Shown here piece by piece: positions 5,307 to 31,705 of a stretch of 37,849 nt of DNA. The notes below the pieces were generated by a model, which saw only the letters and a program-made list of their open reading frames with translations, ran no database searches and was not told the origin of the DNA. The stretch covers positions 1-37,849 of IMG/VR virus record IMGVR_UViG_3300031519_007812; one strand, given 5' to 3'. Each line of letters opens with the position of its first letter. Within the stretch, counting starts at the first letter, position 1. A program made the translations under genes and the position numbers. Origin of the DNA: a virus (taxonomy: Duplodnaviria > Caudoviricetes).

Positions 5307-5939
5307 TTAAGCCTTTGGATAAGATTCTTCTTTATATCGAACTTCGGCCTGCATTTTTTTTCTCCATCGCGCTTTTCCATGAACGAAGATGTATCTATGC
5401 TTTCTTGGTCTTGGTTTCAAATAAAAGTCGTCGCCGTATTTGTCGCGCATTGCTTGTGCGCGATTCTTTACTCCGCGAAATTCGTCAGTTAATGTTAGTT
5501 GGTGCAAGTGTTCTTTGCCCTTGACTCTCCAATCCGTTCTTTTGGCACTCAGCCCATGATACGAAAAGCTACATGCCTGATACACGATTCCAGCGTGTCC
5601 TTGAGATGAATCAGCAAAACTAATAATTACTTTACCCTTCGGAAGCTTCTTAATGCTTCTCGCCACAAGTCTACTTGCTTCGTTCCTTAGATTGTTACGA
5701 AGGCATAGCCTGTTTAGCTCCAAAATACACGATGCGTTCTCTTTGCCGACTATTCCATTTCTAAGAGTTGGGCTTGGCGGCGTTCCATACGTTACGCATC
5801 CAACGTTCACTCCGTCTCGGAATAGTCCAAACGCATAAGAAATACTTGGCCACCGCTTTGCGTAATGAATCTCCAATATGTATGGAGCGCATTCTGCACG
5901 GGTTATCTCTCTTACTTCGTATAAAGGTTTATCTTCCAT
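5307..5939 (-). CDS. mom: Mom-like GNAT-fold DNA adenine modification enzyme
   Basis: HY, AFGLF, GCVTYG.P, LELNRL, ISFADSSQGHAGIVYQA..F.Y.G and a C-terminal K.RY match the Mu Mom family pattern. Confidence 0.75.
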   Translation of the reverse strand: MEDKPLYEVREITRAECAPYILEIHYAKRWPSISYAFGLFRDGVNVGCVTYGTPPSPTLRNGIVGKENASCILELNRLCLRNNLRNEASRLVARSIKKLPKGKVIISFADSSQGHAGIVYQACSFSYHGLSAKRTDWRVKGKEHLHQLTLTDEFRGVKNRAQAMRDKYGDDFYLKPRPRKHRYIFVHGKARWRKKMQAEVRYKEESYPKA

Positions 5940-6659: not shown

Positions 6660-7292
6660 TTAAAGGATTATTTCCCTTGAGTCAATCAAATTTTTACATT
6701 TTCTTTTAAGAGCTTTTCTTGAATAAAAAATTCTGCTCATTACTGTCCCTTTGGGTATATTCAACTCCTTTGCGATTTCTTCGTGTCCTTTGCCCTGCAA
6801 GGTTAGTTCTAAAATTCTTCTTTCTCGGTCTTTAAGTAGCGAAATAGCTTCTTTAATTATTGATAGCTTTATACTATCTGGCTCCTTTTCTTCAAGAATT
6901 TTAAATGGGTCATTATAATCCACTGCAATCCCAGCAACCGTGTAGTAAGCGTCGTTTTCTTCCTCAAGACCTTCTAAGCTTAATTTATTTGATTGATATT
7001 TATTATTGCAATGCCGTATAAAACTAACGTATTCGTTTTTTAACGCTCTTGCCATCCAATGATTTATCTTTTTGGGGTTGGACATGGCTTTTATATTTTT
7101 GTAAATTTTAGCAAATATAATCTGTACGATGTCTTGTGCGTCATGCAAAGGTACTTGTTTTCTTCTTAGCCTGCTTATAAAAATAGGAAGGTTCGCTTTG
7201 AACAGTTCGTTAAAAGCATCTTCATCTCCAGCTTTGTGTTTCTCGCAAAGTTCTATATTTTTTGATTCGTAATCTTCTTTATTAAACTGCAT
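6660..7292 (-). CDS. RNA polymerase sigma factor, ECF-like
   Basis: Region 2: GDEDAFNEL, DAQDIVQ, W...ALKN. Region 4: EEIAKELNIPKGTVMSRIFYSRKAL. Confidence 0.85.
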   Translation of the reverse strand: MQFNKEDYESKNIELCEKHKAGDEDAFNELFKANLPIFISRLRRKQVPLHDAQDIVQIIFAKIYKNIKAMSNPKKINHWMARALKNEYVSFIRHCNNKYQSNKLSLEGLEEENDAYYTVAGIAVDYNDPFKILEEKEPDSIKLSIIKEAISLLKDRERRILELTLQGKGHEEIAKELNIPKGTVMSRIFYSRKALKRKCKNLIDSREIIL

Positions 7293-7314: not shown

Positions 7315-8232
7315 TTAGCTTTTCAATGTTAAAAACTCAAGCTCTCTAATTGCGAGGTCTTTAGACTTCAGCTCTACTTCCCAATCTACATCGTATGACT
7401 TGGTTTCGCAAGCGGAAACATAATGAGTATCAAACTGAGTCGGCATATCTGCGTGACTACGGGGGTTGGGTTTGTCAGGGTGAGATTCGGAGTAATGAAA
7501 CAAAGGCTTATGATCACCCCATGTAGCAATACAATCGTAAATGCCAGAGTCACTTGGGTTACACTTGTCATGCAAATTGTCATAAGTTACGGGAATGCCA
7601 TGACGCTTGTAAAAATATTTGACTAAGCGTTCGGCGGTCCAAATGCTCTTGTCCTCGTTTTCCACGACAAGACGACTACGAACACTCTTGGTAAGAGTAT
7701 CAAGGTTGGCGGCAAAGCGGTCAGCGATCTCCCAAAGCTCACCATCAGAGCAGTTGACATGAATATTGATGGGGTTTTGGTAACTGCGCTCGCAACCTAA
7801 AAGGTCCATCATCCAGCCTTGATGTTTAAGCTCATTCTTGGTTTTAGCGAGACTAGACTCATTGCGAGACGCAAGCACATTGAATTGATCAGGATGACAA
7901 GATAAGCGGACAGGATAGTTGGCTTGGCGAATGGCAGCAAACTCCTGCATGATAGCGTCGTAATCTGGAGCGTCTTCTAATGAATAAGTAAAGTCTGGAT
8001 GGGTGAGGACGGGGAACAAAGAAGAAGACACGCGATAATTCCAACCATTGTCAGCACAATGCTGAATTATTCGATGGGTTACTTTGATATTGTTGAGCCA
8101 GCGAGCAGATAACTCTTTAAGAGCTGTCTTAGGGCAATCCCTAGAACTAAGATCGTTGAAGCGTTTCCAAGTCATGGTTTTAAATGAATGACTTGGTTTG
8201 AGTTCGTTGGAAATGCAGCAAAGTGAATGCAT
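7315..8232 (-). CDS. uvsE: UV-damage endonuclease
   Basis: YRVSSSLFP, RLSCHPDQFNVLAS, INIH, RLVVENED, YDNLH, PLFHYSE, HAD and ELKSKDLA. Confidence 0.9.
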   Translation of the reverse strand: MHSLCCISNELKPSHSFKTMTWKRFNDLSSRDCPKTALKELSARWLNNIKVTHRIIQHCADNGWNYRVSSSLFPVLTHPDFTYSLEDAPDYDAIMQEFAAIRQANYPVRLSCHPDQFNVLASRNESSLAKTKNELKHQGWMMDLLGCERSYQNPINIHVNCSDGELWEIADRFAANLDTLTKSVRSRLVVENEDKSIWTAERLVKYFYKRHGIPVTYDNLHDKCNPSDSGIYDCIATWGDHKPLFHYSESHPDKPNPRSHADMPTQFDTHYVSACETKSYDVDWEVELKSKDLAIRELEFLTLKS

Positions 8233-8321: not shown

Positions 8322-8480
8322 TTAATTTAGAGGCTTTTTTAAAAGTCCAGATTGCTTTTTCCAAAATCTGATTGTTTCAGCGAGATTTCGGACATCTATA
8401 TGAACTTCTTCGTTTTTAAAAAGCTTGTTTTCTTCATATTTTTTTATTAACCTTTTAATTTCTGACTCATATAGCATCAT
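8322..8480 (-). CDS. Small hypothetical protein (52 aa, not in the ORF track)
   Basis: MMLYESEIKRLIKKYEENKLF...KKPLN. Its ATG overlaps the sigma factor TGA (ATGA). Confidence 0.55.
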   Translation of the reverse strand: MMLYESEIKRLIKKYEENKLFKNEEVHIDVRNLAETIRFWKKQSGLLKKPLN

Positions 8481-9289
8481 AAGATATCCTTTATTTTATT
8501 TTCTTTAAATAATTTTTCAATTTTTGATAGAGCAATATTCCTAAGTTGTCTTACTCTTTCTCTTGTAATTTTGTATTTTTTTCCAATCTTAGCTAGGTTG
8601 AGCCTATCTTCACCAAAAAGTCCGTAATTCTTTACAATTATATCTTTTTCTCTTTCGGACAAGATTTCCAAACATTCTTTAATTATTTTTAACTTGTCTT
8701 TTGTGTCTGCCAATTCAAAAGTTTGCTCCTGATCTACGTTAAAAATTTCAAGCCTTTCTTCTCCAGAATCAAGCTCTTTATTTAGACTTTCCGGTATTCT
8801 CATTCTAGTTTTATAAGCAAGCAGCATATCGCTTGTGATGCCTAAAGCCTTTTTAATTGTTGATTCTTTTGGGAGGCGACCGAATTTTTCTTTGAATTCT
8901 TGTTTGTATGATTTGATTTTTTCAAAAACTTTTCTAGTACTACAGCTAAAATGAAACTGATTTAAATTGCTGGTTGTATACTTATTGCAAGCATTCACCA
9001 TCGCAATTCCCGCATAGCTATAAAACTTTACATTGTGTTTAACTTCAAAAGTTTCTGTAGCTTTTACAAGGGCATCGCAGCAAACAGAAAAGAAGTCTTG
9101 CAGGGTCAAAGAGCTATTTCTAAACTTGAACGCATATTTATTTGCAAAGGAATAAGCAAATTTCAAATTGTTGAGAACTAACTGCTCTCTATATTTGTCG
9201 TCTGGAAGCTCGTTTTTTAACTCTTTTTCTTGCTCAAGAGTCAGTACTTTGTGGTCTAGTGCTTGTTGCAAAAATTCTGGTTCACTCAT
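8477..9289 (-). CDS. RNA polymerase sigma factor, RpoD/RpoS-like (regions 1.2-4)
   Basis: LTLEQEKEL, EQLVLNNLKFA, KFYSYA, SLN, LSEREKDII..YGL and IGKKYKITRERVRQL. Start moved to the ATG at 9289 on promoter geometry. Confidence 0.88.
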   Translation of the reverse strand: MSEPEFLQQALDHKVLTLEQEKELKNELPDDKYREQLVLNNLKFAYSFANKYAFKFRNSSLTLQDFFSVCCDALVKATETFEVKHNVKFYSYAGIAMVNACNKYTTSNLNQFHFSCSTRKVFEKIKSYKQEFKEKFGRLPKESTIKKALGITSDMLLAYKTRMRIPESLNKELDSGEERLEIFNVDQEQTFELADTKDKLKIIKECLEILSEREKDIIVKNYGLFGEDRLNLAKIGKKYKITRERVRQLRNIALSKIEKLFKENKIKDIL

Positions 9290-9297
9290 GTGACGAT

Positions 9298-9326
9298 ACA
9301 TTAAATGGTTATTTGATGCGTGTCAA
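9298..9326 (-). promoter_or_regulatory. sigma70-type promoter for the sigma factor gene
   Basis: TTGACA-17nt-TAATGT, ending 8 nt before the ATG at 9289. Confidence 0.7.
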
Positions 9327-10329: not shown

Positions 10330-10540
10330 TTTTTTTATATTTTAAATAAACAATTACCATTATAGTTGAACTCAGGCAACCAAAAACATAGTTAGCTAAA
10401 AAAAGCTTCTTGCAGCCAGTAAAATATCGCAGCAAATAAAAAAGATAAAATAGTTAAAGTCAAGATGTCGGTTACTAATGTTGTTATTTGTCTTTTCTTC
10501 ATTTTTTATTTTTAATTGAGAACCTGAGACTGTTGTGAAG

Positions 10541-10617
10541 TGGTACCCCCGGCAGGACTCTAACCTGCAACCTAGAAATTAGAAATTTCTTGCTCTATAC
10601 AGTTGAGCTACGGGAGC
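10541..10617 (-). tRNA. tRNA-Arg(UCU) with encoded CCA
   Basis: GCTCCCG-TA-GCTC-AACTGTATA-GAGC-A-AGAAA-TTTCTAA-TTTCT-AGGTT-GCAGG-TTAGAGT-CCTGC-CGGGGGT-A-CCA forms a full cloverleaf with anticodon TCT and the A20 Arg identity element. Confidence 0.93.
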
Positions 10618-10698
10618 ATAAATCCGCTATGATTGCATTTGCTCACCAATGTGTAAACTTAAACCCATAGATACGTAAATAGTGCGTTTACGAGTAGT

Positions 10699-10727
10699 AA
10701 GATGCCTGTTGCTTTGTTATTTGTCAA
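10699..10727 (-). promoter_or_regulatory. Putative promoter for the tRNA
   Basis: TTGACA-17nt-CATCTT upstream of the tRNA. Confidence 0.5.
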
Positions 10728-10760
10728 ATAATTTCTTGTAAAAATGTGTAATTTATTTGT

Positions 10761-17270: not shown

Positions 17271-17601
17271 CAATAAACCTCCAGCTCAAAATAAAAGCAC
17301 TATAAATTAAAAGAAGATGTTCTAAGTTTTTTTGTGCAATGCAAGAGACTAAATACAGCCAAAAAGAAAAACAGTATGGACAAGAGAATAGTTTGCTTAA
17401 AAAAGACTGGCTTTTAAAATTCCAATACTCTAAATAATTTGAGCAGTTTAAAGCGTTTCGTTCTTTTTCATAGCCTGAAGCGTCAATTCCAAAAAGCTTC
17501 ACGTAATAAGAGAGGAGTTCTGTCTTGTAAACTATAAATAAAATAGAAAAAACGCTACTCCAAGTTAATAATAAATCAAATGACAGTTCAAGAAGCTTCA
17601 T
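17263..17601 (-). CDS. Membrane protein with CPYC..FW motif (DUF1360-like)
   Basis: Hydrophobic segments and KLFSCPYCFSFW. Confidence 0.65.
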   Translation of the reverse strand: MKLLELSFDLLLTWSSVFSILFIVYKTELLSYYVKLFGIDASGYEKERNALNCSNYLEYWNFKSQSFLSKLFSCPYCFSFWLYLVSCIAQKNLEHLLLIYSAFILSWRFIDE

Positions 17602-17999
17602 GCATTTTAATTGAGTGGTTTAAAGATAATGATTATTTCGACTTAGAATATAATTATAATAGCGTTGTAAGAGGGAAAAATCTACACAAAGATGCAAAAT
17701 TAGTTAGATCATCGCTTTTAGCTGCCCTAGAGAATATAGAGGAAGCTGGAATTGTCAAGTCTACTGTTCCAGCTACAAATTATCAAAAAATTTGGGTTCT
17801 CCAAAAAAAGCTTTGTGATCTTGACCAGACGGTTAAACTTTCTGGCAATATTTGTCGTGGAATCTACGATTTTCTGAGTGAATGTGCAAAAAATTTAGAC
17901 ATGGACTGCACTACAGACCCTTTGAATATCTCACAGGAAGACGTTGAGTCTCTGTTGTGGGCTTTGAATCTTCTGAAAGAGGATAAAAAAAATGATTGA
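17580..17999 (+). CDS. Hypothetical protein
   Basis: 139-aa ORF, the first gene of the plus-strand block. Confidence 0.7.
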   Translation: MTVQEASCILIEWFKDNDYFDLEYNYNSVVRGKNLHKDAKLVRSSLLAALENIEEAGIVKSTVPATNYQKIWVLQKKLCDLDQTVKLSGNICRGIYDFLSECAKNLDMDCTTDPLNISQEDVESLLWALNLLKEDKKND

Positions 18000-18024
18000 C
18001 AAAATCAAAATTACCAACCATAAA
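17996..18024 (+). promoter_or_regulatory. Putative promoter for the structured RNA
   Basis: Perfect TTGACA overlapping the upstream stop, then 17 nt, then CATAAA(T), which is a weak -10. Confidence 0.5.
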
Positions 18025-18029
18025 TACAA

Positions 18030-18450
18030 ACAGCCACCTGAGAAATCAGGCGTGATGAGCTACGGAGACCTGAAAAATCGGCCCGACTCCTTGGCGGGAG
18101 ACGCATGAATTTAGCTCTACAAATAAAAAATCGTATGGTATTGGGCAAACTGTAACTCGGACCATACGGCCAATCTGAGAGTAATTTTAGAAAGGTGTCC
18201 CAGACAAGCGTGAGAATGTTTTTCTACTAAGGGAAGGGAATTGATCCTTCTTAGCGAACGGGACAGAGACTTGGGTTCCTGAACGGTATCAGGATGAGGT
18301 AGGCGTAAGTTTTAGACGCACACCAAAAAGACCTTGTAGCGAAAGCTAGGTGTCAAACTCACAGGATAGAGTTAAGAGTACACTTTCTTCTAGTGCCATA
18401 ATTAGTTTTTTTAAACGTTATGAGCATTAGGAGAGGTGTATCCTCAAGGA
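18030..18450 (+). ncRNA. Candidate large structured ncRNA of unknown family
   Basis: The region is ORF-free and more GC-rich than its flanks. It forms many helices, two of them closed by GAAA tetraloops, and G-U pairs favour the plus strand. Confidence 0.7.
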
Positions 18451-18511
18451 TAGAATCAAGGCTTAGGGAGTTTATGGTTTACTTTATGAAGTTGCTGAGT
18501 ATATTAAGTTT

Positions 18512-19105
18512 ATGAAATTTATAGGTATTTGTGGTTATGCTAACTCAGGTAAAGATCTTCTTTGTAGTGTTTTGGAAGATTACTACAGTGGCGCAAGAGT
18601 TGCTTTGGGAGACTTCTTAAAACAACAATGTAAATCTGAGTGTATTAAAAAATTTGGAATCGATCCTACTGATTGTTCAAGAGAGGATAAAGATAAAGTA
18701 AGAGACTTTCTTGTTTCTTATGCAGAATCTTTAAGGACAATAAGTTCTGGTACCCACTTTACAAGCCTAGCAGACAACTGTATTAAAAACTTAAGTAAAT
18801 ATTACGATGTTTTTATTATTCCAGACATTAGGTTCGACTATTATCCCAAAGATGAAGCTAATTGGCTTTTATCGAAACCTAAATCTATTTTGATTCATAT
18901 TGAAAGAGAAGGAGTTTCTGCGCCAAACCACACTGAAAAAATAAACACGCCTAAAGTTGTTAAAAAGGCACACTTGAATGTAATGCCCCCTAATTTCGTT
19001 GATGAAAAAAACAAGAATAAAGATTTTTTAGATTTTTTAATTTCTTCTGGCACTATAGACACTATTAATGAAAGACTTAGAATTAGCTCAACAAGTGAAA
19101 AATGA
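18512..19105 (+). CDS. Deoxynucleoside monophosphate kinase
   Basis: IGICGYANSGKD P-loop and IIPDIRF..E. Confidence 0.8.
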   Translation: MKFIGICGYANSGKDLLCSVLEDYYSGARVALGDFLKQQCKSECIKKFGIDPTDCSREDKDKVRDFLVSYAESLRTISSGTHFTSLADNCIKNLSKYYDVFIIPDIRFDYYPKDEANWLLSKPKSILIHIEREGVSAPNHTEKINTPKVVKKAHLNVMPPNFVDEKNKNKDFLDFLISSGTIDTINERLRISSTSEK

Positions 19106-19628
19106 TGAAGATCAGGCTGCTCTTCAGGAACTGATTGAAAAGCACCAAGGAATTTTTTACACAATTGTTCACAAGTATTCTACGGTTTTCAAACAGTCAG
19201 GAGTTTATAAGAATGATATTCTTGACGATAGAGATTACATTATTTATAAAACCGCCAAGTCTTTTCAATCTGACAAAAACGCTAAATTTTCAACTTGGTT
19301 AGGCAACTGTACAAGATACGAATGCTTGAATAGAATTTCACAGAAAGCCAAATACGTTTACTCCGAAGAACTCGGAAACCAAAAACCTTGCGCCACAATA
19401 CAGGAATCCGACTCTTGCAATGAAGAAAAGGTCCGATTCTACTTCGATGAAGTAAAAAAGCTCAGTGACGAAAGGATGTTAAAAATTTTTAAATTAAGGT
19501 ACTTGAACGGGACAAGAAAAGTCATGCCTTGGAATCAAATAGGCAAAAAATTAAAAATCTCTACACAAACCGCACTGAATATTCACAACAAAGCAATTGA
19601 AAGAATAAAAAGTAAAACTTTTGTTTGA
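19068..19628 (+). CDS. RNA polymerase sigma-70 family factor (regions 2 and 4)
   Basis: ALQELIEKH, KFSTWLGN..RY and IFKLRY...W.QIGKKLKISTQ...H.KA. Confidence 0.8.
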   Translation: MKDLELAQQVKNDEDQAALQELIEKHQGIFYTIVHKYSTVFKQSGVYKNDILDDRDYIIYKTAKSFQSDKNAKFSTWLGNCTRYECLNRISQKAKYVYSEELGNQKPCATIQESDSCNEEKVRFYFDEVKKLSDERMLKIFKLRYLNGTRKVMPWNQIGKKLKISTQTALNIHNKAIERIKSKTFV

Positions 19629-21522: not shown

Positions 21523-23487
21523 ATGAGCGAAACTATTTCTAATGAATTTATTAAAGGTTATCAAGGCAAGCACCCTAATTGGGGTTTCAATGGTTTAGGC
21601 TACATTGTATACAAAAGAACTTATTCTAGATTAAAAGAGGACGGTAAAACTGAGGAATGGCCTGAGACAATTCAAAGATGTATCAACGGCGCACAACAAA
21701 TTGGAGCCAATTACACAAAAGAAGAAGCTGAAAAGCTTTTTGACTTGATTTTCAACCTCAAGTGCAACTTCGCCGGAAGAATGCTTTGGCAGCTTGGCAC
21801 GCCGACTGTCGAACGTTTCGGGGCAAATTCACTACTCAATTGTTGGTTCACTCAAATGAACGAGCCAAAGTCCTTCACATTCTTGTTTGAGAATCTTATG
21901 CTTGGTGGAGGTGTTGGATTTAGCGTTCGTCGTGAGGACGTCCACGAACTTCCAAGAATTAAAACTGGTGTGAACATTTGGCATGATGAAAACCCAGAAG
22001 GAGTAGCAACAAGAGATGCAGATTTTATTGTGCCTGATTCCCGTGAAGGATGGGTGCAATTACTCGGCAAAGTTTTAAAAGCTTTCTTCTCTACAGGTAA
22101 AAGTTTTTCTTATTCTAGCGTTCTTATTCGTGGTGCTGGCGAATTGATTAGAGGATTTGGCGGTACTGCTTCTGGACCTTATATTTTGATCAATGGAATC
22201 ACTAAAATTTGCGAAGTACTCAAATCCCGTGAAGGTAAAAAGCTTCGTTCAATTGATGTTCTTGATATCAATAATGTCATTGGAAGTATTGTAGTTGCTG
22301 GTAATGTTCGCCGTTCTGCTGAAATTGCTATTGGAGATCCTGACGACTTCCTTTTTCTAAGAGCCAAGCGATGGGATCTTGGAGGCATCCCAAACCATCG
22401 TGCAATGTCCAACAACACTATCTACTGCGATAGCTATGAACACACCTCAGACGCCCTCTGGGAAGGCTACAATGGCAATGGAGAGCCTTATGGTCTATTC
22501 AACTTGCCCTTGTCTGAGAAGTATGGCAGGAAGCGAGACGGGGTAATGAAGAAAAGCGACCTTTATCCAGAAAACAAGGATAATGTCGTTGGAACAAATC
22601 CATGCGGTGAAATCAGTCTTGGAAACTACGAATGTTGCAACCTTAGCGAATTGTATCTAAACAATATTGAGTCTAAAGAAGAAATGTTTGAATGCGCCAA
22701 ACTACTTTACAAGACTCAAAAGGCTATTTGCGCTCTTCCATTCATTCACGAAGAGACAAATAAAATTGTTCACAAAAATATGCGAATCGGTCTTGGAGTG
22801 ACCGGAATTTGCCAAAGTAAGGGCAAATTGGATTGGCTAGATTATACCTACACAAAACTTCGCGCATTTGACAAGGACTATTCAAAGAAAAATGGATACA
22901 ATCAATCCATCAAGCTAACCACCGTAAAACCAAGCGGAACATTGAGTCTTCTTGCTGGATCTACTCCCGGTGTGCATCCAGCTTTTTCTCATTACTTTAT
23001 TCGTCGTATCCGCATGGCTGCTAGCGACTCTCTCGTAGTCACTTGCAGAGACCTTGGATATCACACAGAGTTCGCCAAGAACTTTGATGGAACCGAAAAT
23101 CATGACACTTTTGTTGTTGAGTTTCCGTGTGAGTTTGACGAAAAGGCGGTTGTAGCAAAGGACATGAGTGCCATTGATCAGCTTGAGCTTATAAAAGTCC
23201 TTCAGTCAGATTGGGCCGACAATGCTGTATCATGCACCGTCTACTATAAAAACGAAGAACTTTTAGAAATCAAACAGTGGCTTTCTAAAAATTACAAGAA
23301 CAATATCAAGAGTGTTTCTTTTCTTCTTCATTCTGATCATGGATTCGTTCAAGCTCCTTATGAAGAAATCGACCAAGATCAATATGAAAAAATAATAAAG
23401 AGGGTCAGGCCAATTAAATCTATTCAAACTTCAAACGAAATGATTGAAGGAATTGAGTGTGAAGGTGGAGCATGTCCGATCAGGTAA
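21523..23487 (+). CDS. nrdJ: Class II (adenosylcobalamin-dependent) ribonucleotide reductase, monomeric RTPR type
   Basis: VYKRTYSR, SLLNC, GGGVG, DSREGW, VAGNVRRSA, TNPCGEI, TTVKPSGT and C-terminal CEGGACPIR. Confidence 0.95.
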   Translation: MSETISNEFIKGYQGKHPNWGFNGLGYIVYKRTYSRLKEDGKTEEWPETIQRCINGAQQIGANYTKEEAEKLFDLIFNLKCNFAGRMLWQLGTPTVERFGANSLLNCWFTQMNEPKSFTFLFENLMLGGGVGFSVRREDVHELPRIKTGVNIWHDENPEGVATRDADFIVPDSREGWVQLLGKVLKAFFSTGKSFSYSSVLIRGAGELIRGFGGTASGPYILINGITKICEVLKSREGKKLRSIDVLDINNVIGSIVVAGNVRRSAEIAIGDPDDFLFLRAKRWDLGGIPNHRAMSNNTIYCDSYEHTSDALWEGYNGNGEPYGLFNLPLSEKYGRKRDGVMKKSDLYPENKDNVVGTNPCGEISLGNYECCNLSELYLNNIESKEEMFECAKLLYKTQKAICALPFIHEETNKIVHKNMRIGLGVTGICQSKGKLDWLDYTYTKLRAFDKDYSKKNGYNQSIKLTTVKPSGTLSLLAGSTPGVHPAFSHYFIRRIRMAASDSLVVTCRDLGYHTEFAKNFDGTENHDTFVVEFPCEFDEKAVVAKDMSAIDQLELIKVLQSDWADNAVSCTVYYKNEELLEIKQWLSKNYKNNIKSVSFLLHSDHGFVQAPYEEIDQDQYEKIIKRVRPIKSIQTSNEMIEGIECEGGACPIR

Positions 23488-24275
23488 TCACAAAAGAAGA
23501 TATCTCAATTGTCATACAGGGGCCAATTGAGGAAGGAACTGATGAAGCATTAAATTCTTTTGAAGGGTTTTCTGATATAGTTTTGTCTACTTGGGAAAAT
23601 GAAGACCTTTCTCTTTTGAAAGATGTTAAAGTAGACTATAGGTTAGTTACTTCAAAATATCAAGATTGTGGCGATACATTTCTAGAGAGACTTAACAAAG
23701 CTACTGGAAAGCCATACTGTTACTGGATGTATCAGACTAACTATAATGGAGTTGCTAACGCTAAAAATAAATTCTCTTTAAAATGTAGAACAGACGAACT
23801 TTATCCTGATCTTTCTATTTTTCTGGACAACTTTTTTAAATACCCAGAAAGGATTCATACAACCAACAACGGTTTTTGGAAGCATATCCCAGCTATGCTT
23901 TCTAACCATTTTTTCTTGGGAGAAACAGAAAAATTAAAAAACTGCTTTTCTAATATAAAAAAGTTCCTTTCCAAAGAATCCTTTACAGAAAAAAAGTTTG
24001 ATAATCTTTTATATTCAGAGCAGATATTTGGATACTTTTACATGCTCGAAAACTCACTCGATATTTTAGATACTGACTGGATTGATGCTTTTAAAAAGAA
24101 TGTATTCATAACCCCAATGTCAGATCTTCCAAATCACCTACATTCAGGAGCAAGCGATACTTCAAGTCAAGTAAAAAGAGTCGCAAATTTTCCAAATGGT
24201 AGACCAGATATGGAGCCAGTTTCCAGAACCATGTTTAATGATATAAATGAAATACCTTGGAGATATCAATTATAA
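23472..24275 (+). CDS. WavE-like polysaccharide synthesis protein
   Basis: EDISIVIQGP, IVLSTW, QT..GV and K.RTD. Confidence 0.65.
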   Translation: MSDQVITKEDISIVIQGPIEEGTDEALNSFEGFSDIVLSTWENEDLSLLKDVKVDYRLVTSKYQDCGDTFLERLNKATGKPYCYWMYQTNYNGVANAKNKFSLKCRTDELYPDLSIFLDNFFKYPERIHTTNNGFWKHIPAMLSNHFFLGETEKLKNCFSNIKKFLSKESFTEKKFDNLLYSEQIFGYFYMLENSLDILDTDWIDAFKKNVFITPMSDLPNHLHSGASDTSSQVKRVANFPNGRPDMEPVSRTMFNDINEIPWRYQL

Positions 24276-24981
24276 TAAGCTTTTTGTAGTTGGCCCATCT
24301 TTTGATCTTCAGCTTCTTGACTTGGAGACACTTCAAGCAAAAAGAAGTCACGGCTATAAAATATTTTCGTACGGAGACTCAATAAAAAGATTCTTCGAAC
24401 TCGATTTTGAGCCAGACTACTGGACTTTTGTAGACCCAAACACTGTATTCCACTTTCAAGACGAAATAAGGTCTGGCAAATTTAATAATATAGAATTGCT
24501 TGTTCCAGATCTTTACAGTGATAATTGTAAAAATTTTTATAATTGCGGTTATAGCTCTATAAATTTAGAAAGAAATAAAAATTTGTTTTTTGAATTAGAG
24601 CAAGGCTTCGATCAAGCTTTTAGAAAATACACCAAATTAGATTTTGAACCAATAAAAGGAATTGGAGATAAAACTAACTATAAACAAAAGCTTTACGTCC
24701 ACCTAAGAAAAGACCTTATAGATTTTTTGAATCCTTGTAAATTTTCGTACAATTTACTTCCTTTGATTTTCTTTGTATTCAAAGACTATAAAAAATTTAA
24801 ATTTTTAGCGTTTGGTCAGTACAATCTTCCAAGGTATTTTAATAAATCTTCTGGCGATTACATTTTTTATGCAAAATGCTACGAACAAATCAAGCCTAAG
24901 TTTATCAACTACATTAAAGACAACCAATTAAACTTGACATTTGTAGGTAGCGAAAGCTATTTTAAAGAACTAGAAGCATGA
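24247..24981 (+). CDS. Putative Maf/DUF115- or GT42-like nonulosonate transferase
   Basis: LFVVGPS and FEPDYWTFVD resemble the GPS and PD..VD motifs of those families. It lies immediately upstream of pseB. Confidence 0.5.
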   Translation: MKYLGDINYNKLFVVGPSFDLQLLDLETLQAKRSHGYKIFSYGDSIKRFFELDFEPDYWTFVDPNTVFHFQDEIRSGKFNNIELLVPDLYSDNCKNFYNCGYSSINLERNKNLFFELEQGFDQAFRKYTKLDFEPIKGIGDKTNYKQKLYVHLRKDLIDFLNPCKFSYNLLPLIFFVFKDYKKFKFLAFGQYNLPRYFNKSSGDYIFYAKCYEQIKPKFINYIKDNQLNLTFVGSESYFKELEA

Positions 24982-25967
24982 CACCATTACATCTCTCAAA
25001 AAAGAAAGTTCTAATTACGGGCGGCACAGGCTCACTTGGTAAAAGCTTGGTAAACAGGCTAAAGCGTTATGGAGCTTTTCCTATAGTTTACAGTAGAGAC
25101 GAAGGCAAGCAAGCATTGTCTTTCGGTCAAGACGAAGCTGTAAAAACCGTTATTGGAGATGTCCGCGATTTTGAAAAGTTAAACGTTACCCTCAAAAGAC
25201 ACAAGCCAGACTACATTATTCACGCAGCAGCACTCAAAAGAATTGATGACATGGAGTTTTATCCAGACGAGTGCATCAAGACCAATATAAACGGATCTGA
25301 AAATGTAGCCAGAGCAGCACTTCAAAACGATATCAAGAAGTGTATCTTGGTTTCTACAGACAAAGCTTGCCAACCAGTAAACGTATACGGATCTTCAAAG
25401 TTCATAGCCGAAAGAATTTTTACTAACTATGATTACAATTCAGATTCAACAATTTTTTCTTCTGTAAGATACGGCAATGTCATTGCTTCAAGAGGATCTT
25501 TCATACCACTGTTTATGGAGAAGATCGAGAAAGGTGAGACAATTAAAATCACTTCAAATGAAATGACTCGCTTTTTGTTTACTCTAGAAGATGCCGTAGA
25601 CTCTGTTTTAAGAGCTTTGGAAAACTCAACTGGTGGAGAAGTATTTGTTCCACAGATAAACTCTTATACTCTTCCTTGTTGCGTTTCTGCTATATCAAAA
25701 TTGGCTGAGATAAGTGCAAAAACTGAAGAAGTCGGACTAAGGCCGGGAGAAAAGCTACATGAAGATATGCTTGCAGAAACTGAACTTCCATTCACCTATA
25801 AAGTAGACGACATAAACTTGCTTCAAGTAAGGCCTCAGTACACAAATAAATCCTATCAAGACTTCAAAAAATACGATGGTCCGCATTTTAACTCAAAGCT
25901 TTGGGTTAAAGATGATGTTGATCATTTGATGGGTCTAATTAAAAGAGGGTCTGAGGGACGCTTGTGA
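24978..25967 (+). CDS. pseB: UDP-GlcNAc 4,6-dehydratase (PseB/FlaA1/CapD family)
   Basis: GGTGSLG, SRDEGKQ, GDVRD, HAAALK, STDKA..P.N.YG.SK, VRYGNV..SRGS and RPGEKLHE. Confidence 0.85.
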   Translation: MTPLHLSKKKVLITGGTGSLGKSLVNRLKRYGAFPIVYSRDEGKQALSFGQDEAVKTVIGDVRDFEKLNVTLKRHKPDYIIHAAALKRIDDMEFYPDECIKTNINGSENVARAALQNDIKKCILVSTDKACQPVNVYGSSKFIAERIFTNYDYNSDSTIFSSVRYGNVIASRGSFIPLFMEKIEKGETIKITSNEMTRFLFTLEDAVDSVLRALENSTGGEVFVPQINSYTLPCCVSAISKLAEISAKTEEVGLRPGEKLHEDMLAETELPFTYKVDDINLLQVRPQYTNKSYQDFKKYDGPHFNSKLWVKDDVDHLMGLIKRGSEGRL

Positions 25968-26938
25968 GGATTTTTCAAAACGAGTTTTTTAATAAAGAAC
26001 TAATAGATATAGTTCAGGTATTTGATACTTGCGAGCTTGGTTTTGGAAAAAATGTTCCTTTGTTAGAGGATAAGTTTGAGTCATTTTCAAATAAAAAATA
26101 TAATGTAGCTACGAACTCTGCAAGTGCCGCAGCTTTTGTTCTTTTTTCATACTTGAAAGAAGTTTATGGAGAATGTGATGTATATGTACCGTCTTTAACG
26201 TTTAACTCTCCAGTTTGGGCTGCTCAACATCACGGTCACAATATAATTTTCGTAGATGTTCAAGATGATGCCAACTTTTCTTTTCAAGATTATCTTTCAG
26301 TAAGACGGTCTAATGGATCATTATGCAAACCTGTTGTAATGCCAACGCTTTATAGCGGAGTTTCTACTATACAAAATATTGACTTGGTTGGAGATGAAAT
26401 TTTAGTAGTTGACTCTGCCCACTGCATTACTCCGACGATAAAGTGCGATTTTATCTTTTTTTCTTTTCATCCCCAAAAACCGATTTGTTCCTCTGATGGT
26501 GGCATGTTATCATGCGATAATGAGTCTGCCTACCATTACTTTAATAGTTATAGAGATTTTGGTAGACAAAATTCATCTTCTAGCTACGACATAAATCAAA
26601 ATGGCTTCAAGTTTTATATGAACAACTTGAACGCTACCATAGCTTTATCGCAATTAAACAAACAGGCTTCCAAAATTAAAGAAAGGAAAGCTAGATATGA
26701 GAAGCTAAAAATTGATTTCGGACAACAGCTAAGTATTCACGACAATAACTCTTCTTATTATTTTGCGACCTTGATTTCTGAAAAATCAAAAGAGATTAAC
26801 AAGATCAATAAACTTCAAAAGCTTTATCCGCCCCTACATAATACTTCTTTTTATAAGAGATTTAAGATCAGAGAATTGCCAAATACAGAAAGAATTTACG
26901 AAAAGCTTTGTAACATTCCTTTGTCTCATTCGTTATGA
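25964..26938 (+). CDS. DegT/DnrJ/PseC-family PLP-dependent sugar aminotransferase
   Basis: NSAS, PSLTF, DSAH and SFHPQKPI...DGGM (PLP lysine). Confidence 0.88.
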   Translation: MRIFQNEFFNKELIDIVQVFDTCELGFGKNVPLLEDKFESFSNKKYNVATNSASAAAFVLFSYLKEVYGECDVYVPSLTFNSPVWAAQHHGHNIIFVDVQDDANFSFQDYLSVRRSNGSLCKPVVMPTLYSGVSTIQNIDLVGDEILVVDSAHCITPTIKCDFIFFSFHPQKPICSSDGGMLSCDNESAYHYFNSYRDFGRQNSSSSYDINQNGFKFYMNNLNATIALSQLNKQASKIKERKARYEKLKIDFGQQLSIHDNNSSYYFATLISEKSKEINKINKLQKLYPPLHNTSFYKRFKIRELPNTERIYEKLCNIPLSHSL

Positions 26939-27921
26939 AAACATTTGTTATAGCAGAAGCTGGAGCTAACCATGACAGAAGCTTTGATCAAGCTATCAAA
27001 TTAATTAATCTAGCTAAAGAGGTCGGATCAACCGCTGTCAAGTTTCAGACTTATTCTTCCGAGACTCTTTATTGCAAAAATACTTCAGACTTTGCTGGGT
27101 ACAAAAACGTAAACAAATTAATTAAAGACATTGAGCTTCCTAGAGAGTGGCAAAAAGATTTAAAAAAATATTGCGACGATCAAAATATAGAGTTTATGTC
27201 TACCCCCTTTGATGAAAAGGCTGTAGAAGAGCTTGTAGATATTGGAGTTAAAAGACTTAAAATATCTGGATTTGAATCGACAGACTTTAGGTTTGTTGAA
27301 ATGGTAGCTTCAGCAAAGCTACCATTAATTGTTTCCGTTGGAATAGGCTTTAGAGACGAGTATCTTACTAAACTTTTAGATATTTGCACAAAGCACACAG
27401 AAGACATTACTTTACTGCACTGTAATAACGCTTACCCAACCCCAATCGACCAATCAAACATCAATAATATTCCTTGGCTCAGAAGATCTTCCGCTCACAA
27501 AGGAGCTAAAGTGGGCTTCTCTGATCATACTTTGTCAACGCTAACTCCAGCTTTTGCCGTAGTGAAAGGGGCAACAACGATTGAAAAACACTTTACCTTA
27601 GACAGATCATTGAAAGGTCCAGATCACCCATTTGCAGTTGAACCCGAAGAACTTCGGCAAATGGTTTTAAACATTTTAGAGGCAGAAAAGGCTCTTACCA
27701 ATTTATCTGCAAATAAACTTTCCAAATCTGAAGAATCTTTTCAATTCGCAAGAAGATCTGTGGTTGCTAAAACCAAGATAAAAAAAGGAGAAGTTTTAAC
27801 AGAGAATAATATTACCACAAAAAGACCTTATGATCCTGTTTTGTCTATTGCAGCGTCAGAGTTTGAAAATGTTTTAAATAGAACTTCTGCAAGAGATTAC
27901 GAGCAAGACGAAATGATATGA
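26935..27921 (+). CDS. neuB: Nonulosonate synthase (NeuB/PseI family) with SAF domain
   Basis: IAEAGANH, VKFQ, STPFD, HC..AYP, GFSDHT, EKHFTL..GPDH and RRS. Confidence 0.92.
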   Translation: MKTFVIAEAGANHDRSFDQAIKLINLAKEVGSTAVKFQTYSSETLYCKNTSDFAGYKNVNKLIKDIELPREWQKDLKKYCDDQNIEFMSTPFDEKAVEELVDIGVKRLKISGFESTDFRFVEMVASAKLPLIVSVGIGFRDEYLTKLLDICTKHTEDITLLHCNNAYPTPIDQSNINNIPWLRRSSAHKGAKVGFSDHTLSTLTPAFAVVKGATTIEKHFTLDRSLKGPDHPFAVEPEELRQMVLNILEAEKALTNLSANKLSKSEESFQFARRSVVAKTKIKKGEVLTENNITTKRPYDPVLSIAASEFENVLNRTSARDYEQDEMI

Positions 27922-28544
27922 AAATCCTACGTCTTGTCTCTGAAAAATATAATATTTTAACTTTTTTAAAGCAGTACGGATTGGCAGCGATTGAACGAAT
28001 GAAGAATCCCACAGTTTCTAAAAAAATACATCTAAAAAGAGTAGAAAAAAAAGATTTAGAGCAGTTAAGGCTCTGGAGAAATGAACCCGATCTTAGAAAA
28101 TACTTTAGAGAGCATAAGGATATCACCGAGACAGATCAGCTAAACTGGTACGAATCTAAAGTTTTAAACGATCCAAATCAATACAACTTTTCTATTTTTG
28201 CTAAAGACAAGCTTATAGGGCATTGTGGGCTGTATTATATTAATTGGATCAATAGGTCAGCGGAGTTTGGCATATATATTGGCGACAGAGATTATAGAAA
28301 TGGTGGATATGGCTCAGAATCTTTAAGAGCTTTGATAAAGTTTGGGTTCGAAGACTTAAACTTAAATAAAATTTGGTGCGAAGTTTATAGCAATAATAAG
28401 TCGATTCGCGTTTATAAACATTTAGGATTCGTATACGAAGGGACTTTGAGAGACACCTATTTTAATGAAGGTAGGTATTGGGATTCTGACATGTTGAGTT
28501 TGTTAAAAAAAGAGTATGAAATGTTGCAAACAAATCAAGCCTAA
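27918..28544 (+). CDS. PseH-like GNAT N-acetyltransferase
   Basis: LRLWRN, AEFGIYIG, R.GGYG, LNLNKI..EV...N and Y..LGF..EG. The start may be the later MKNPT. Confidence 0.8.
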   Translation: MKILRLVSEKYNILTFLKQYGLAAIERMKNPTVSKKIHLKRVEKKDLEQLRLWRNEPDLRKYFREHKDITETDQLNWYESKVLNDPNQYNFSIFAKDKLIGHCGLYYINWINRSAEFGIYIGDRDYRNGGYGSESLRALIKFGFEDLNLNKIWCEVYSNNKSIRVYKHLGFVYEGTLRDTYFNEGRYWDSDMLSLLKKEYEMLQTNQA

Positions 28545-29250
28545 GTCTATCAACCACAAGAACTTGAATGAAATTTGTTTAATTGTTCAGGCTAGGCTTG
28601 GCTCACAAAGAGTTCCTCGCAAAATGATTAAACCGTTCGCTGGAACCACTTTGGTAGATATACTTTTTAAAAAGCTTAAAAGTTTAAAAAATATTCCCAC
28701 CAAAAATATTTATTTTTCTGCTTATGAAGACGAGCTAAAACAAATAGCTGAAAACCATCACATAAATATCTTTCACAGATCAGAGCAGTCTGCGAAATCC
28801 GAAGGAGACCCTTTATCAGAGATATATGAGTGGTATAACAAGCTTCCTTTCAAATACGTAGTCCTTGTAAGTGCCTGCAACCCGCTCTTAAAAGCTGAAA
28901 CGATAGACGACTTTATAGACAATTACGCAAAATCAGACAAGAATGGGGGCTTCGCAGTTTTCGAGAAAAAGACTTACTATTGGGACAAAAACTCAAAACC
29001 GATCTCTGACTGGAAAGGCAGAACAACAATGAACACTAAATTCGCTGAGCCAACCTACGAAGCAGCACATTGTTTGTATGCAAGCGAAATGAGTGGTATC
29101 GAAAATGGAGTTTGGATGGATGATAAATCTCCACCGCAACCAGAGCTTTTCGTAATGAACGAGCTGGAAGCTTTTGATATTGATTATCAATGGCAATTTG
29201 ATACAGCAGAAGCAATTTACAAAAACAAAGAGAACAATAATTTAATATGA
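28516..29250 (+). CDS. CMP-nonulosonate synthetase (NeuA/PseF/SpsF-like cytidylyltransferase)
   Basis: QARLGSQRVPRK and EAFDID...F..AE. Confidence 0.85.
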   Translation: MKCCKQIKPKSINHKNLNEICLIVQARLGSQRVPRKMIKPFAGTTLVDILFKKLKSLKNIPTKNIYFSAYEDELKQIAENHHINIFHRSEQSAKSEGDPLSEIYEWYNKLPFKYVVLVSACNPLLKAETIDDFIDNYAKSDKNGGFAVFEKKTYYWDKNSKPISDWKGRTTMNTKFAEPTYEAAHCLYASEMSGIENGVWMDDKSPPQPELFVMNELEAFDIDYQWQFDTAEAIYKNKENNNLI

Positions 29251-30290
29251 AGAAAATAATCATCACAGGAATTTTAGGGCAAGACGGGGCTAATATGGCA
29301 GAGTATCTTCTGTCTTTGTACGACGAATTATGCGAAGAATACGATTATGAAATTTATGGTATGATGCGTAGATCTGCCAATCCAAACTTCAAAAACATTG
29401 AAAAAATTAAAAATCATCCAAGATTCAACTTACAATTCCTTGATCTTGGTGATACGGCGAGCATTGATTCAACAGTAAAAGAAGTCGAACCAGATTACTT
29501 TATTAATTTCGCCGCGAACAGCTTCGTTGGTATTAGCTGGAAAATGCCAGAACAAGTTATGGACGCGAATACTCTTGGCGTTTTGCGTTGTCTTGAGGCT
29601 GTTCGTAAATTCAAACCAGACTGTCGATTCTATAGCGCAGGGTCTAGCGAGGAATGGGGTGACGTTGATTACAGTCCTCAAGACATCGACCATCCAATTA
29701 AACCTCGCAGTCCGTACGGAGCTTCAAAAGCAGCGGCAAGGCATCTCGTAAAGGTTTACAGAGAATCTTATGATATGTATGCTATTCACGGTATTCTTTT
29801 TAATCATGAAGGAACGAAGCGTGGAGAAGAGTTCGTAACTAGGAAGATCTCAAAAGGAGTAGCTAGAATCAAATACGAAGGAGAGGCTTCAGATCCCATT
29901 GAGCTTGGAAATATTAACGCCAAAAGAGACTGGTCAGATTCCAGAGACTTTGTAGAAGGCATTTGGTTGATGATTAACCAAGACTCTCCAAAAGATTATA
30001 TTCTTTCTAGTGGAGAAACTCATAGCATCAGAGAGTTTGTTGAAAAAGCTTTTGCTGTCGCAGGAATTAACGGATCTTGGCATGGACAAGGTCTTGACGA
30101 GGTTTTTGTAGATGGAGACCAAGTCTTGGTGAGAATAAATCCAGAATTTTATAGGCCAGCAGAAGTTGATCTTCTTTTAGGAGACTCTACTCCAATTCGT
30201 GAAGAACTTGGGTGGAAACCAAAAATTTCATTTGACAAATTGGTAGAGTCTATGGTACAGTATGACATAGATGAAGCCAGACGCAACTAA
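29247..30290 (+). CDS. gmd: GDP-mannose 4,6-dehydratase
   Basis: TGILGQDG, PRSPYGASK, GILFNHE..RGEEFVTRKI, RDW and YRPAEVDLLLGD. Confidence 0.96.
   Translation: MKKIIITGILGQDGANMAEYLLSLYDELCEEYDYEIYGMMRRSANPNFKNIEKIKNHPRFNLQFLDLGDTASIDSTVKEVEPDYFINFAANSFVGISWKMPEQVMDANTLGVLRCLEAVRKFKPDCRFYSAGSSEEWGDVDYSPQDIDHPIKPRSPYGASKAAARHLVKVYRESYDMYAIHGILFNHEGTKRGEEFVTRKISKGVARIKYEGEASDPIELGNINAKRDWSDSRDFVEGIWLMINQDSPKDYILSSGETHSIREFVEKAFAVAGINGSWHGQGLDEVFVDGDQVLVRINPEFYRPAEVDLLLGDSTPIREELGWKPKISFDKLVESMVQYDIDEARRN
30232..30261 (+). promoter_or_regulatory. Putative promoter inside the gmd 3' end
   Basis: TTGACA-18nt-TACAGT with an extended -10 TG, ending 9 nt before the ATG at 30271. Confidence 0.5.
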
Positions 30291-30615
30291 ATGTCAACTT
30301 TTAGTTGAATCAATGTTGGAGGGTCAAAAGATTATTTGGCCCGTCCAAATCCCCGTAGCGCAAAAGCTTATTAGTTTTTGCGATGACTTATCTTTTTGGC
30401 TAAAAGTCAAAAACGATCTGGATATTCGAATATATTCTCTCAAGCTTTTTCTTTCTGTCCCAATGAAGAAAAAGCTTAAAGAGGAGAAGAGAAAGTTTTT
30501 TCTTGACAAAAAGCCAAAGGAGGAGCATACTCTACAGCAAGACAAAATAGGCGAAGACGCAGAGAAAAAGAAAAAGAAAATTAAAACTTTAAAGGATTTT
30601 TTAAAAAATGGGTAG
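30271..30615 (+). CDS. Hypothetical basic protein
   Basis: 114-aa ORF overlapping gmd and recA. Confidence 0.7.
   Translation: MKPDATKCQLLVESMLEGQKIIWPVQIPVAQKLISFCDDLSFWLKVKNDLDIRIYSLKLFLSVPMKKKLKEEKRKFFLDKKPKEEHTLQQDKIGEDAEKKKKKIKTLKDFLKNG
30503..30531 (+). promoter_or_regulatory. Putative promoter for the recA block
   Basis: TTGACA-17nt-CATACT inside the upstream gene. Confidence 0.5.
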
Positions 30616-31705
30616 AAAAAAGAAAGAAACTCAGGAAGGTGGGCTTACTACAATAGGTCAACTCGAAGCCTATCTAAAAGAAACTAAGGATGATCATTAC
30701 AACTATTCCGAAAATGTGAGCTATAAAGTTAAAAGCGGAAGTCTGATTTTAGACGTAGCAACAGGTGGGGGAATTGGTCCCGGCTTGGTTAGAGCGACAG
30801 GGGTAAGCGGTGGTGGTAAAACTAGCTGTGGCCTTGCTGTTGCTAGAAATTTTCAGCAAACTGTAGAAAATTCCATGATCATCTACATCAAAGCTGAAGG
30901 TCGCCTATCTGACGACATGATTGCTAGAGCAGGGATTGACACAAGCCCAGAAAAGTGGTTTGTATACAAGTCAAATATCTTTGAGCCTGTTATGCATTTG
31001 ATCAGTATTCTTATCAAGAACAATCTAGAAAATAAAAAGTATTTTTTTGTTATTGATTCTATGGATGGACTTATTCGTAAAAGAGAAATGGCTAAGTCTT
31101 ACGATGAATCTCAGCAAGTTGGCGGAGGAGCAACAATTACTTCGACCTTCTTGAAAAAGATGAACTTAGCGATCACAGAAGGTGGACATATTTGTTGGAT
31201 GATTAGTCAGGTGAGAGCAACTATCAAAGCTGACCCAAGGCAAAGGCTGGATCATAGACTAACTAACGCTTCAGGAGGTAATGCAGCTACTCACTTTGCC
31301 AACTGGATCTTTGAGTTTCAGCCGACTTACAAAGATGATAAAATCATAAGGAAAATAAAGGGAGAAGATAAAATTGTGGGACATTGGGCAAAGATTGCCT
31401 TCCAAAAAACAGAAAATGAAACAGCAGGAGAAGTTGTTAAGTATCCAATCTGTCATGGCAGAACCCACGGTGAAAGCATATGGGTTGAATACGAAGTCTT
31501 TGATTTGCTTTTGGCTTGGGATATGCTGAAAAAGGCTGGAGCTTGGTTTTCTCCAACTCAGCCTTTGACAGAGTTGATGCAGGAGCATAGTTTAGAGTTC
31601 CCAGAGACGCTTCAAGGAGAAGCAACAGTTCTTTCTTATCTGCAAGAAAATAAGAATGTAACAAGTGTTCTAGCCGAGCATTTTAAAGAAATTCTTTTAC
31701 CGTGA
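30608..31705 (+). CDS. recA: RecA/UvsX recombinase
   Basis: SGSLILD...GGG, Walker A GVSGGGKTS, VIDS, SQVR, SGGNA and KAGAWF. Confidence 0.9.
   Translation: MGRKKKETQEGGLTTIGQLEAYLKETKDDHYNYSENVSYKVKSGSLILDVATGGGIGPGLVRATGVSGGGKTSCGLAVARNFQQTVENSMIIYIKAEGRLSDDMIARAGIDTSPEKWFVYKSNIFEPVMHLISILIKNNLENKKYFFVIDSMDGLIRKREMAKSYDESQQVGGGATITSTFLKKMNLAITEGGHICWMISQVRATIKADPRQRLDHRLTNASGGNAATHFANWIFEFQPTYKDDKIIRKIKGEDKIVGHWAKIAFQKTENETAGEVVKYPICHGRTHGESIWVEYEVFDLLLAWDMLKKAGAWFSPTQPLTELMQEHSLEFPETLQGEATVLSYLQENKNVTSVLAEHFKEILLP

Follow-up and report, generated by a model that had tools for sequence, protein, structure and literature searches.

A candidate RNA gene of a large tailed phage contains an imperfect copy of the sequence behind its own 3' hairpin

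The analysis of a non-coding gap in a large tailed phage revealed a structured element of about 425 nt (type A) that is conserved in related phages, folds into several domains and belongs to a family absent from Rfam. The first-pass annotation, made from the letters alone, had proposed a functional and possibly new multi-domain non-coding RNA at this place, and homologs, covariation and the Rfam search all support this proposal; the element at 18032-18460 is very likely an RNA gene. One copy of an imperfect direct repeat lies inside it and the other follows its 3' hairpin, and repeats of the same layout are found in two unrelated families (types B and C) that occupy the same genomic slot. With a probability of roughly 0.4, we favour a cis-acting RNA whose internal copy would hybridize to the template strand past the gene, forming an R-loop in a manner reminiscent of ColE1 RNA II.

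Genomic context of the gap

The window, i.e. the whole stretch of 37,849 nt analysed here (IMGVR_UViG_3300031519_007812), is a linear virus record with a CheckV completeness of 17%; complete relatives measure 172-178 kb. Its gene content is that of a large tailed phage, with rIIA/rIIB, three sigma-70-family factors, ThyX, dUTPase, a class II ribonucleotide reductase and DnaB. The three sigma-70-family factors differ from each other and are found within 13 kb (6660-7292, 8477-9301 and 19068-19628). The window also encodes a Mom-like DNA modification protein (5307-5939), a UvdE UV-damage endonuclease (7315-8232) and, flanked by ribonucleotide reductase and DnaB, a sugar-modification cluster (23472-31705) with WavE-like, epimerase/dehydratase, DegT aminotransferase and NeuB genes. 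A tRNA-Arg(TCT) is located on the minus strand inside another gap of 431 nt (10330-10760).

The gap of interest (18000-18511) lies between the genes of a 139-aa protein (named U139) and of a dNMP kinase, at the junction where leftward genes end and a long rightward operon begins. The announced ORF-free interval of about 510 nt was borne out, since these 512 nt contain no ORF of at least 50 aa and their longest stop-free runs reach 37 codons on the plus strand and 70 on the minus strand. Its higher GC content was likewise confirmed, with 44% over 18032-18455 versus 37% for the window. Neither the type-A RNA, nor type B, nor three neighbouring proteins had a match in annotated phages and plasmids, and single-protein scans of viral contigs gave no matches. 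A 12-mer spacing scan of the window and of the related records G038 and G035 revealed no CRISPR-like array. The features discussed below are collected in Table 1.

Table 1. Features of the gap, its flanking genes and the alternative occupants of the slot (window positions unless a locus is named).
Feature	Position	Strand	Evidence or remark
U139, 139-aa gene	17580..17999	+	Constant neighbour of slot RNAs; stop codon inside the -35 box of the RNA
Candidate sigma-70-type promoter of the RNA, TTGACA-17-CATAAA	17996..18024	+	Sequence; putative start near 18032
Type-A structured RNA, about 425 nt	18032..18460	+	Folding z, homologs, 12 compensatory pairs; both ends putative
5' GAAA-tetraloop hairpin	18037..18050	+	Compensatory change in 1/5 pairs
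Domain 1: closing helix, inner UGAAA-capped hairpin, variable hairpin	18057..18117	+	2 plus 1 compensatory pairs
9-bp helix enclosing conserved GGGCnAACUGUAACnCGG loop	18131..18169	+	3 compensatory pairs; loop conservation
Conserved core	18196..18351	+	2 plus 2 compensatory pairs; remaining helices invariant
Copy 1, inside the RNA; candidate DNA-pairing segment	18349..18376	+	Core CTCA-C-AGGATAGAG-TTAAG, 18358-76
Long 3' hairpin, U-rich tip; would put copy 1 beside copy 2	18375..18445	+	Folds, covariation
Copy 2; candidate DNA target	18435..18460	+	Core CTCA-AGGATAGAA-TCAAG, 18443-60; single copy in window
Candidate leaderless promoter of dNMP kinase operon, TTTACT-16-TATATT	18478..18505	+	Scanner; 6 nt before ATG
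dNMP kinase and sigma-70-family factor genes	18512..19628	+	PHROG 139, PF04542; first genes of rightward DNA-metabolism operon; outside the RNA
Type-B RNA, about 310-380 nt	L006:1185-1570; L118, L097, L178 and about 25 more loci		Conserved CCCCGGCGTG core
Type-C element	L106:2530-2895; L109:2405-2825		GCGGTG/CACCGC closes first domain
Type-D 495-nt non-coding gap	L117:2322-2817		Complete 172-kb record; no homolog, folding signal or significant repeat

Structure and conservation of the type-A RNA

The segment 18032-18460 folds at -133.1 kcal/mol, with z-scores of -5.54 on the plus strand and -3.21 on the minus strand, and passes the proposed comparison with shuffles, none of 100 folding as well on either strand. 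A scan of metagenome contigs with a kinase alignment yielded 26 loci, among which the RNA occupies the same place in the window record, in an identical fragment (L002) and in three relatives. Two of them (L004 and L005) are 91% identical to the window RNA; the third (L007) is 68% identical over 431 columns and its kinase is 51% identical. For the four type-A sequences, RNAalifold predicted 118 pairs, 18 of which show a double change. A model of 68 pairs, all of them paired in every sequence (100%), contains 12 compensatory pairs distributed over 7 of its 11 helices, more than in any of 500 shuffles and in all slid controls. This model was drawn from the same four sequences on which it was tested, and every one of the 12 double changes stems from L007, so that the evidence amounts to one lineage. 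The helices of the first-pass annotation, written before any homolog had been seen, offer a fairer test and account for 10 of the 12 compensatory pairs. Covariation in syntenic relatives, which it had named as a check, is present, with this single divergent homolog as its source.

At the level of individual helices, seven had been proposed with usable coordinates: five show compensatory changes, TGTCCC/GGGACA is invariant and one long-range pairing fails. The latter, between CTGAGAGT and ACTCACAG, contains an internal mismatch, is broken in L007 and shows no compensatory change; the stretch folds instead as a local GTAA-capped hairpin. In domain 1, proposed as GAGCTA/TAGCTC enclosing CTCCT/GGGAG, the closing helix covaries and the inner CTCCT/GGGAG hairpin is lost in L007; the domain has an inner hairpin with a UGAAA cap that is, we assume, T-loop-like. 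The conserved core combines TGTCCC/GGGACA with an optional 38-nt insert (absent from L007), a TCCTGA/TCAGGA hairpin, a GGT-GCG/CGC-ACC hairpin and a GAAA-capped hairpin. Finally, the G-U pairs of the 3' stem had been described as working on the plus strand only, in agreement with three one-sided G-C/G-U changes that keep the pairing on this strand alone.

No further type-A member was recovered. Three pattern scans of viral sequences (11, 0 and 33 loci) and one of genomes (1 locus) yielded nothing that a profile or model confirmed as a true member. The covariance model R2 produced one AT-rich match of 15.9 bits in 41 related records, judged to be due to chance, and no new member in 92 sources.

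Comparison with known RNA families

The type-A RNA belongs to none of the families tested. Rfam 15, whose library presumably includes GOLLD, ROOL, OLE, MISL, HEARO and ARRPOF, matched only the tRNA in the window; over 17950-18550 the best E value was 0.6, with scores far under the gathering thresholds. The search suggested as a test of novelty therefore returned no family for this RNA, and neither L006, L007 nor 15 loci of types B, C and D had a match at threshold. Both ARAGORN and Rfam were negative for tmRNA in the window. The earlier statement that signatures of RNase P, tmRNA and introns are missing agrees with these results: no long-range helix of the RNase P P4 type occurs among the helices valid in all four type-A sequences, the candidate strands of a group I P7 are not complementary, and the element is intergenic. 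Resemblances to group I introns, RNase P and cobalamin riboswitches were dropped for wrong order or lack of pairing. In the literature searched (subscription journals and bioRxiv supplements excepted), we found no description of these RNAs or of the repeat, and six motif strings were absent from the 6 supplementary files of PMC10690425 to which the search extended.

A diverged ribozyme with a group I intron-like or RNase P-like core is highly improbable. It would draw on AGAGRCU and UAGGCG in the conserved core, which we take to resemble the group I R and S elements, and on the GGACTG and GCAGTC segments of type C, which are able to pair. However, Rfam is silent, neither sequence shows complementarity between the presumed P7 strands, the presumed 5' strand of P3 sits in a local hairpin supported by a compensatory change, and no host gene is interrupted.

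A free-standing ornate RNA, i.e. an abundant scaffold or self-assembling cage in the manner of GOLLD and ROOL, with a role directed at host or phage, for which the repeat would be incidental to 3' end formation, comes closer to the data, and we still consider it unlikely. The type-A RNA shares with these molecules a large multi-junction structure with covariation (from one divergent homolog), nested junctions, GNRA loops and a patchy occurrence in phages (PMC5737381 and PMC12286853), and it has a size of 400 nt and its own candidate promoter. PMC12286853 describes GOLLD and ROOL as cage-forming phage RNAs of unknown function. Nevertheless, the type-A RNA is shorter (425 nt versus about 580 and over 800), gives no covariance-model match to either family and lies outside a tRNA island, the nearest tRNA being the tRNA-Arg found by ARAGORN 7.4 kb away. 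Among the helices valid in all four sequences there is no covarying kissing-loop pair. The self-matching repeat and a slot common to unrelated RNAs also set it apart, and an ornate scaffold would leave the concerted repeats of three unrelated scaffolds unexplained.

Candidate promoters

The promoter TTGACA-17-CATAAA announced ahead of the RNA is present (boxes at 17996-18001 and 18019-24) and its placement and spacing are kept in relatives: in loci of types A, B and C alike, a TTGAC-16/17-TAnnn motif coincides with the stop codon of U139. The window promoter has a weak -10 box, and a consensus promoter scanner did not include it among its sites. Of 75 distinct sequences upstream of the kinase, 35 have a sigma-70-like site 4-9 nt ahead of the ATG, those of the window, L004 and L006 among them. 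It is absent where the kinase abuts its upstream gene, and also in L007 (under a strict rule), L097, L105, L106, L109 and L118. With a -10 box 6-8 nt before the ATG, the kinase transcript appears leaderless in much of the family. Since the kinase has a promoter candidate of its own, the type-A RNA is probably a separate gene, although both promoters are candidates read from sequence.

Exchange of RNA types at one slot

Two aspects had been overlooked in the first-pass annotation, namely that the slot is common to unrelated RNA families and that the sequence immediately past the 3' hairpin has a copy inside the RNA. From a scan with the sigma factor, 197 relatives were found and 80 kept; U139 is encoded in 12 of these, 7 of which display a non-coding gap of 400-500 nt before the kinase. 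Alignment z-scores of the gaps range from 5 to 40 within types and do not exceed 2.1 between A, B, C and D, which are unrelated in sequence. Type B folds with z-scores of -2.6 to -3.5 and shows double changes in 25 of 50 predicted pairs; its many diverse members make it much better suited than type A to an R-scape analysis. Neither type C (2 loci) nor type D (1 locus) folds better than its shuffles. Type C is conserved between its two loci (L106 and L109), and type D is unsupported as an RNA.

The occupant of the slot has been exchanged, as seen in L006, which has a 70%-identical kinase: its slot holds type B, yet it nests inside the type-A clade, between L007 and the window, with 99/99 support on the sigma-factor tree. 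A quick kinase tree of 30 chosen loci gives the same nesting with a support of 99.

A type-B motif scan recovered 35 loci; the 22 that are true by profile all have U139 at a distance of at most 2.5 kb, and both orientations occur. In 41 related records, a type-B DNA query matched strongly in 5 and U139 was present in 10, so most relatives, including the complete G039, have no recognisable copy. Eight of the ten U139-bearing records contain a known RNA gap, and the other two are fragments without one nearby. A tRNA occurs inside the fetched flank of 2 of 27 type-B loci. At five type-B loci the RNA is directed into the leftward operon. In L162, L165, L170, L171, L178 and L185, the type-B RNA and the kinase are separated by at least one gene on the opposite strand, and the 3' hairpin thus faces a convergent gene.

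U139 itself has no Pfam match, no consistent PHROG match and no usable protein-atlas match, and its family comprises 147 cluster representatives at 50% identity. Its AlphaFold model (pLDDT 94) predicts an N-terminal winged helix followed by a helical C-terminal part; structure matches to the winged helix (residues 1-83) are generic, with Z of 7-9. The would-be recognition helix is acidic. U139 also occurs without an RNA nearby in L124, L210 and L211. Besides U139, no effector candidate emerged among the genes common to G038 and G035 and absent from G039 and G020, which look like tail-region genes or small unlabelled ones.

A direct repeat spanning the 3' hairpin

The type-A repeat is direct, imperfect and 28 nt long, with copies 82-86 nt apart in all four sequences and shuffle p values of 0.015 (window), 0.04 (L004) and <0.005 (L007). 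In L007 the cores read CTCA-C-GGGATTGAG-CAAAG (copy 1) and CTCA-GGGATTGAT-CAAAG (copy 2); both copies thus differ from those of the window in the same way, with no compensating change in the tail that separates hairpin and copy 2. Copy 1 forms a small hairpin that covaries (a pair change in the comparison with L007). Types A, B and C all carry such an internal copy of 15-25 nt of the sequence past the 3' hairpin. The type-C repeat (13-15 nt) differs between its two loci (p of 0.005 and <0.005), with copies 185-200 nt apart and a GGACTG able to pair with the repeated AGTC; the type-D repeat, known from L117 only, is not significant (p 0.2).

In type B, copy 1 lies just before a C-run/G-run 3' hairpin, is itself preceded by a pseudoknot-like pairing, and matches the downstream stretch of its own locus. 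The repeat statistics come mostly from this type (22 loci, after removing 8 duplicates or near-duplicates), type A consisting of four sequences with one divergent homolog. Scores averaged 27.3 against the own-locus copy versus 16.1 against other loci, a difference attained in 0 of 10,000 permutations; in this 22-locus comparison, L080 and L105 were not best because the scored stretch clipped their copy. After similar copies had been collapsed to one locus per cluster, the own copy came first in 12 of 14 clusters. One extra base near position 4-5 of copy 1 is usual in both A and B. The copies are purine-rich, and many are short palindromes. In the complete record G038, there is one exact target, and two other sites at 3 mismatches versus one in a reversed control.

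The mismatches between copies are themselves informative. Transitions with G in copy 1 and A in copy 2, or T in copy 1 and C in copy 2, outnumber the opposite ones by 22 to 6, an asymmetry that is borderline (13 versus 4) for the 14 collapsed clusters, and both mismatches of the window are of this G-T/U-G wobble-compatible kind. In the full set, where the alignment ends are loose, 63 of 91 mismatches are transversions. Because the transitions lean as G-T and U-G wobbles allow, they support pairing of copy 1 with the complement of copy 2, the explanation of the copy likeness that we favour, pairing with the tail coming next.

This second explanation corresponds to a co-transcriptional folding switch, in which the pyrimidine-rich tail would pair initially with copy 1 and switch to copy 2 once this has been transcribed, setting termination, read-through or the final fold, as in a leader or attenuator. 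Displacement of a wobble-paired early partner by a perfect late one would generate the same mismatch asymmetry; predicted folds often pair the tail with either copy, the type-A TATCCT (18439-44) is able to do so, copy 2 of L106 extends to the kinase start, and copy 1 has a slight pairing preference for its own tail over those of other loci (p 0.03). However, of the 356 identical positions, just 131 pair with the tail in both copies, no such preference is seen for copy 2 (p 0.64), the concerted changes between window and L007 leave the tail uncompensated, and the kinase has its own promoter candidate; on balance, a switch of this type seems improbable. A third partner in the RNA body that would co-vary with the repeat was not found (p 0.74).

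The copies might also be two sites for one protein such as U139, a DNA operator or iteron on the one side and a site or decoy in the RNA gene on the other, which would drift together. The predicted winged helix, the proximity of U139 to all 22 type-B pattern loci and the palindromic nature of many copies fit with this idea, as does the observation that repeat similarity goes with the similarity of U139 more than with that of the scaffold (partial r 0.28). Nevertheless, the signal resides in the C-terminal part of U139 and not in its winged helix (partial r 0.21 versus 0.08), and the repeat follows the kinase nearly as closely as it follows U139 (0.24 versus 0.27), which points to kinship. Considering in addition the loci where U139 has no RNA nearby and the fixed one-base indel, which is odd for two sites of one protein, we judge this scenario to be very unlikely.

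A possible R-loop mechanism and related systems

In the R-loop reading, the RNA would be transcribed from the candidate promoter at the U139 stop codon, and the long hairpin would loop out the spacer and bring copy 1 beside copy 2 as the polymerase passes. Copy 1 could then invade behind the polymerase and pair with the template strand at copy 2, holding the duplex open; wobbles (G-T and U-G) and a single bulged base would be tolerated in this pairing. Purine-rich RNA favours RNA-DNA hybrids. Being co-transcriptional, such an R-loop would need no effector of the TnpB, Cas or reverse transcriptase type. TnpB/Cas12f (PF07282) and reverse transcriptase (PF00078) were absent from 5 records, three of them complete, and from the 29 window proteins scanned in this 17%-complete record. 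No match to the RNase H family was obtained in 5 records, three of them complete, and RNase H could come from the host. Besides this, several observations weigh against the R-loop reading, namely the lack of a recognisable copy in most relatives, the five type-B loci whose RNA is directed into the leftward operon, the majority of transversions among the mismatches and the non-significant repeat of type D.

The R-loop might prime or open a phage replication origin, or control the promoter located 20-60 nt downstream. Of the two, origin priming is the likelier purpose, although it is the most speculative part of the R-loop reading and, taken overall, rather unlikely; promoter control is weaker still. 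The cumulative GC skew reaches its minimum within 0.4-10 kb of the slot in the window (17300) and in all four long records, two of which have no RNA found. Given that GC skew at fourfold sites mostly follows the gene strand, this minimum does not count as separate evidence for an origin; an origin at the slot is plausible.

The G-rich stretch of ColE1 RNA II pairs with a downstream C-rich stretch of the template. According to PMC5043065, RNA II measures 550 nt, stays in a persistent hybrid and acts as the replication primer, and PMC6317783 states that its G-rich stretch is required. The likeness consists in a long folded transcript of the host polymerase with a proposed template-strand hybrid near its own 3' end. 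In contrast to RNA II, the phage match is a bulged mixed sequence of 15-25 nt that varies between phages, a terminator-like hairpin separates the copies, no counterpart of the antisense RNA I was seen, and the type-A RNA has no sequence match in plasmids or Rfam. Structured plasmid motifs of 223-349 nt tied to replication regions (ARRPOF, GEBRO and PAGEV) are described in PMC5737381; unlike these, the element is found in a phage, and it matches none of them in Rfam.

A second parallel is offered by the guide RNAs of TnpB and Cas12f, including TldR and dCas12f-sigma-E, in which a scaffold precedes a 3'-proximal segment that equals a DNA site upstream of a gene. A 3'-proximal segment matching a DNA site does exist here, in a bulged form and in cis, with the pseudoknot-like pairing immediately ahead of it in type B. 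The phage slot and dCas12f loci (PMC12259090) both have an HTH gene and a sigma factor nearby. In contrast to these guides, the match is not contiguous, there is one target, adjacent in cis, PF07282 is missing from the 5 records mentioned above, and relatives that lack the RNA still have the sigma gene. As a tentative and somewhat unlikely generalization of the R-loop reading, at least three non-homologous, swappable RNAs of 300-450 nt may function as programmable cis DNA-targeting devices with a bulged guide of 15-25 nt, presented by the folded scaffold to the template strand directly past the RNA gene, and without TnpB, Cas protein or reverse transcriptase; their role would be to open an origin or switch a promoter.

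Significance

The structures of GOLLD and ROOL have been solved and their function is lacking; the type-A family brings a built-in clue that co-varies with the DNA behind the gene, and this clue recurs in three unrelated scaffolds that take each other's place in a single genomic slot. Were the RNA to pair with this DNA, it would represent either a phage counterpart of the ColE1 primer RNA or a new form of RNA-guided DNA recognition. Should the programmable-device reading be true, it would define a new class of RNA-guided DNA recognition that is protein-free or relies on an unknown effector. At the very least, this work would add three RNA families that Rfam lacks.
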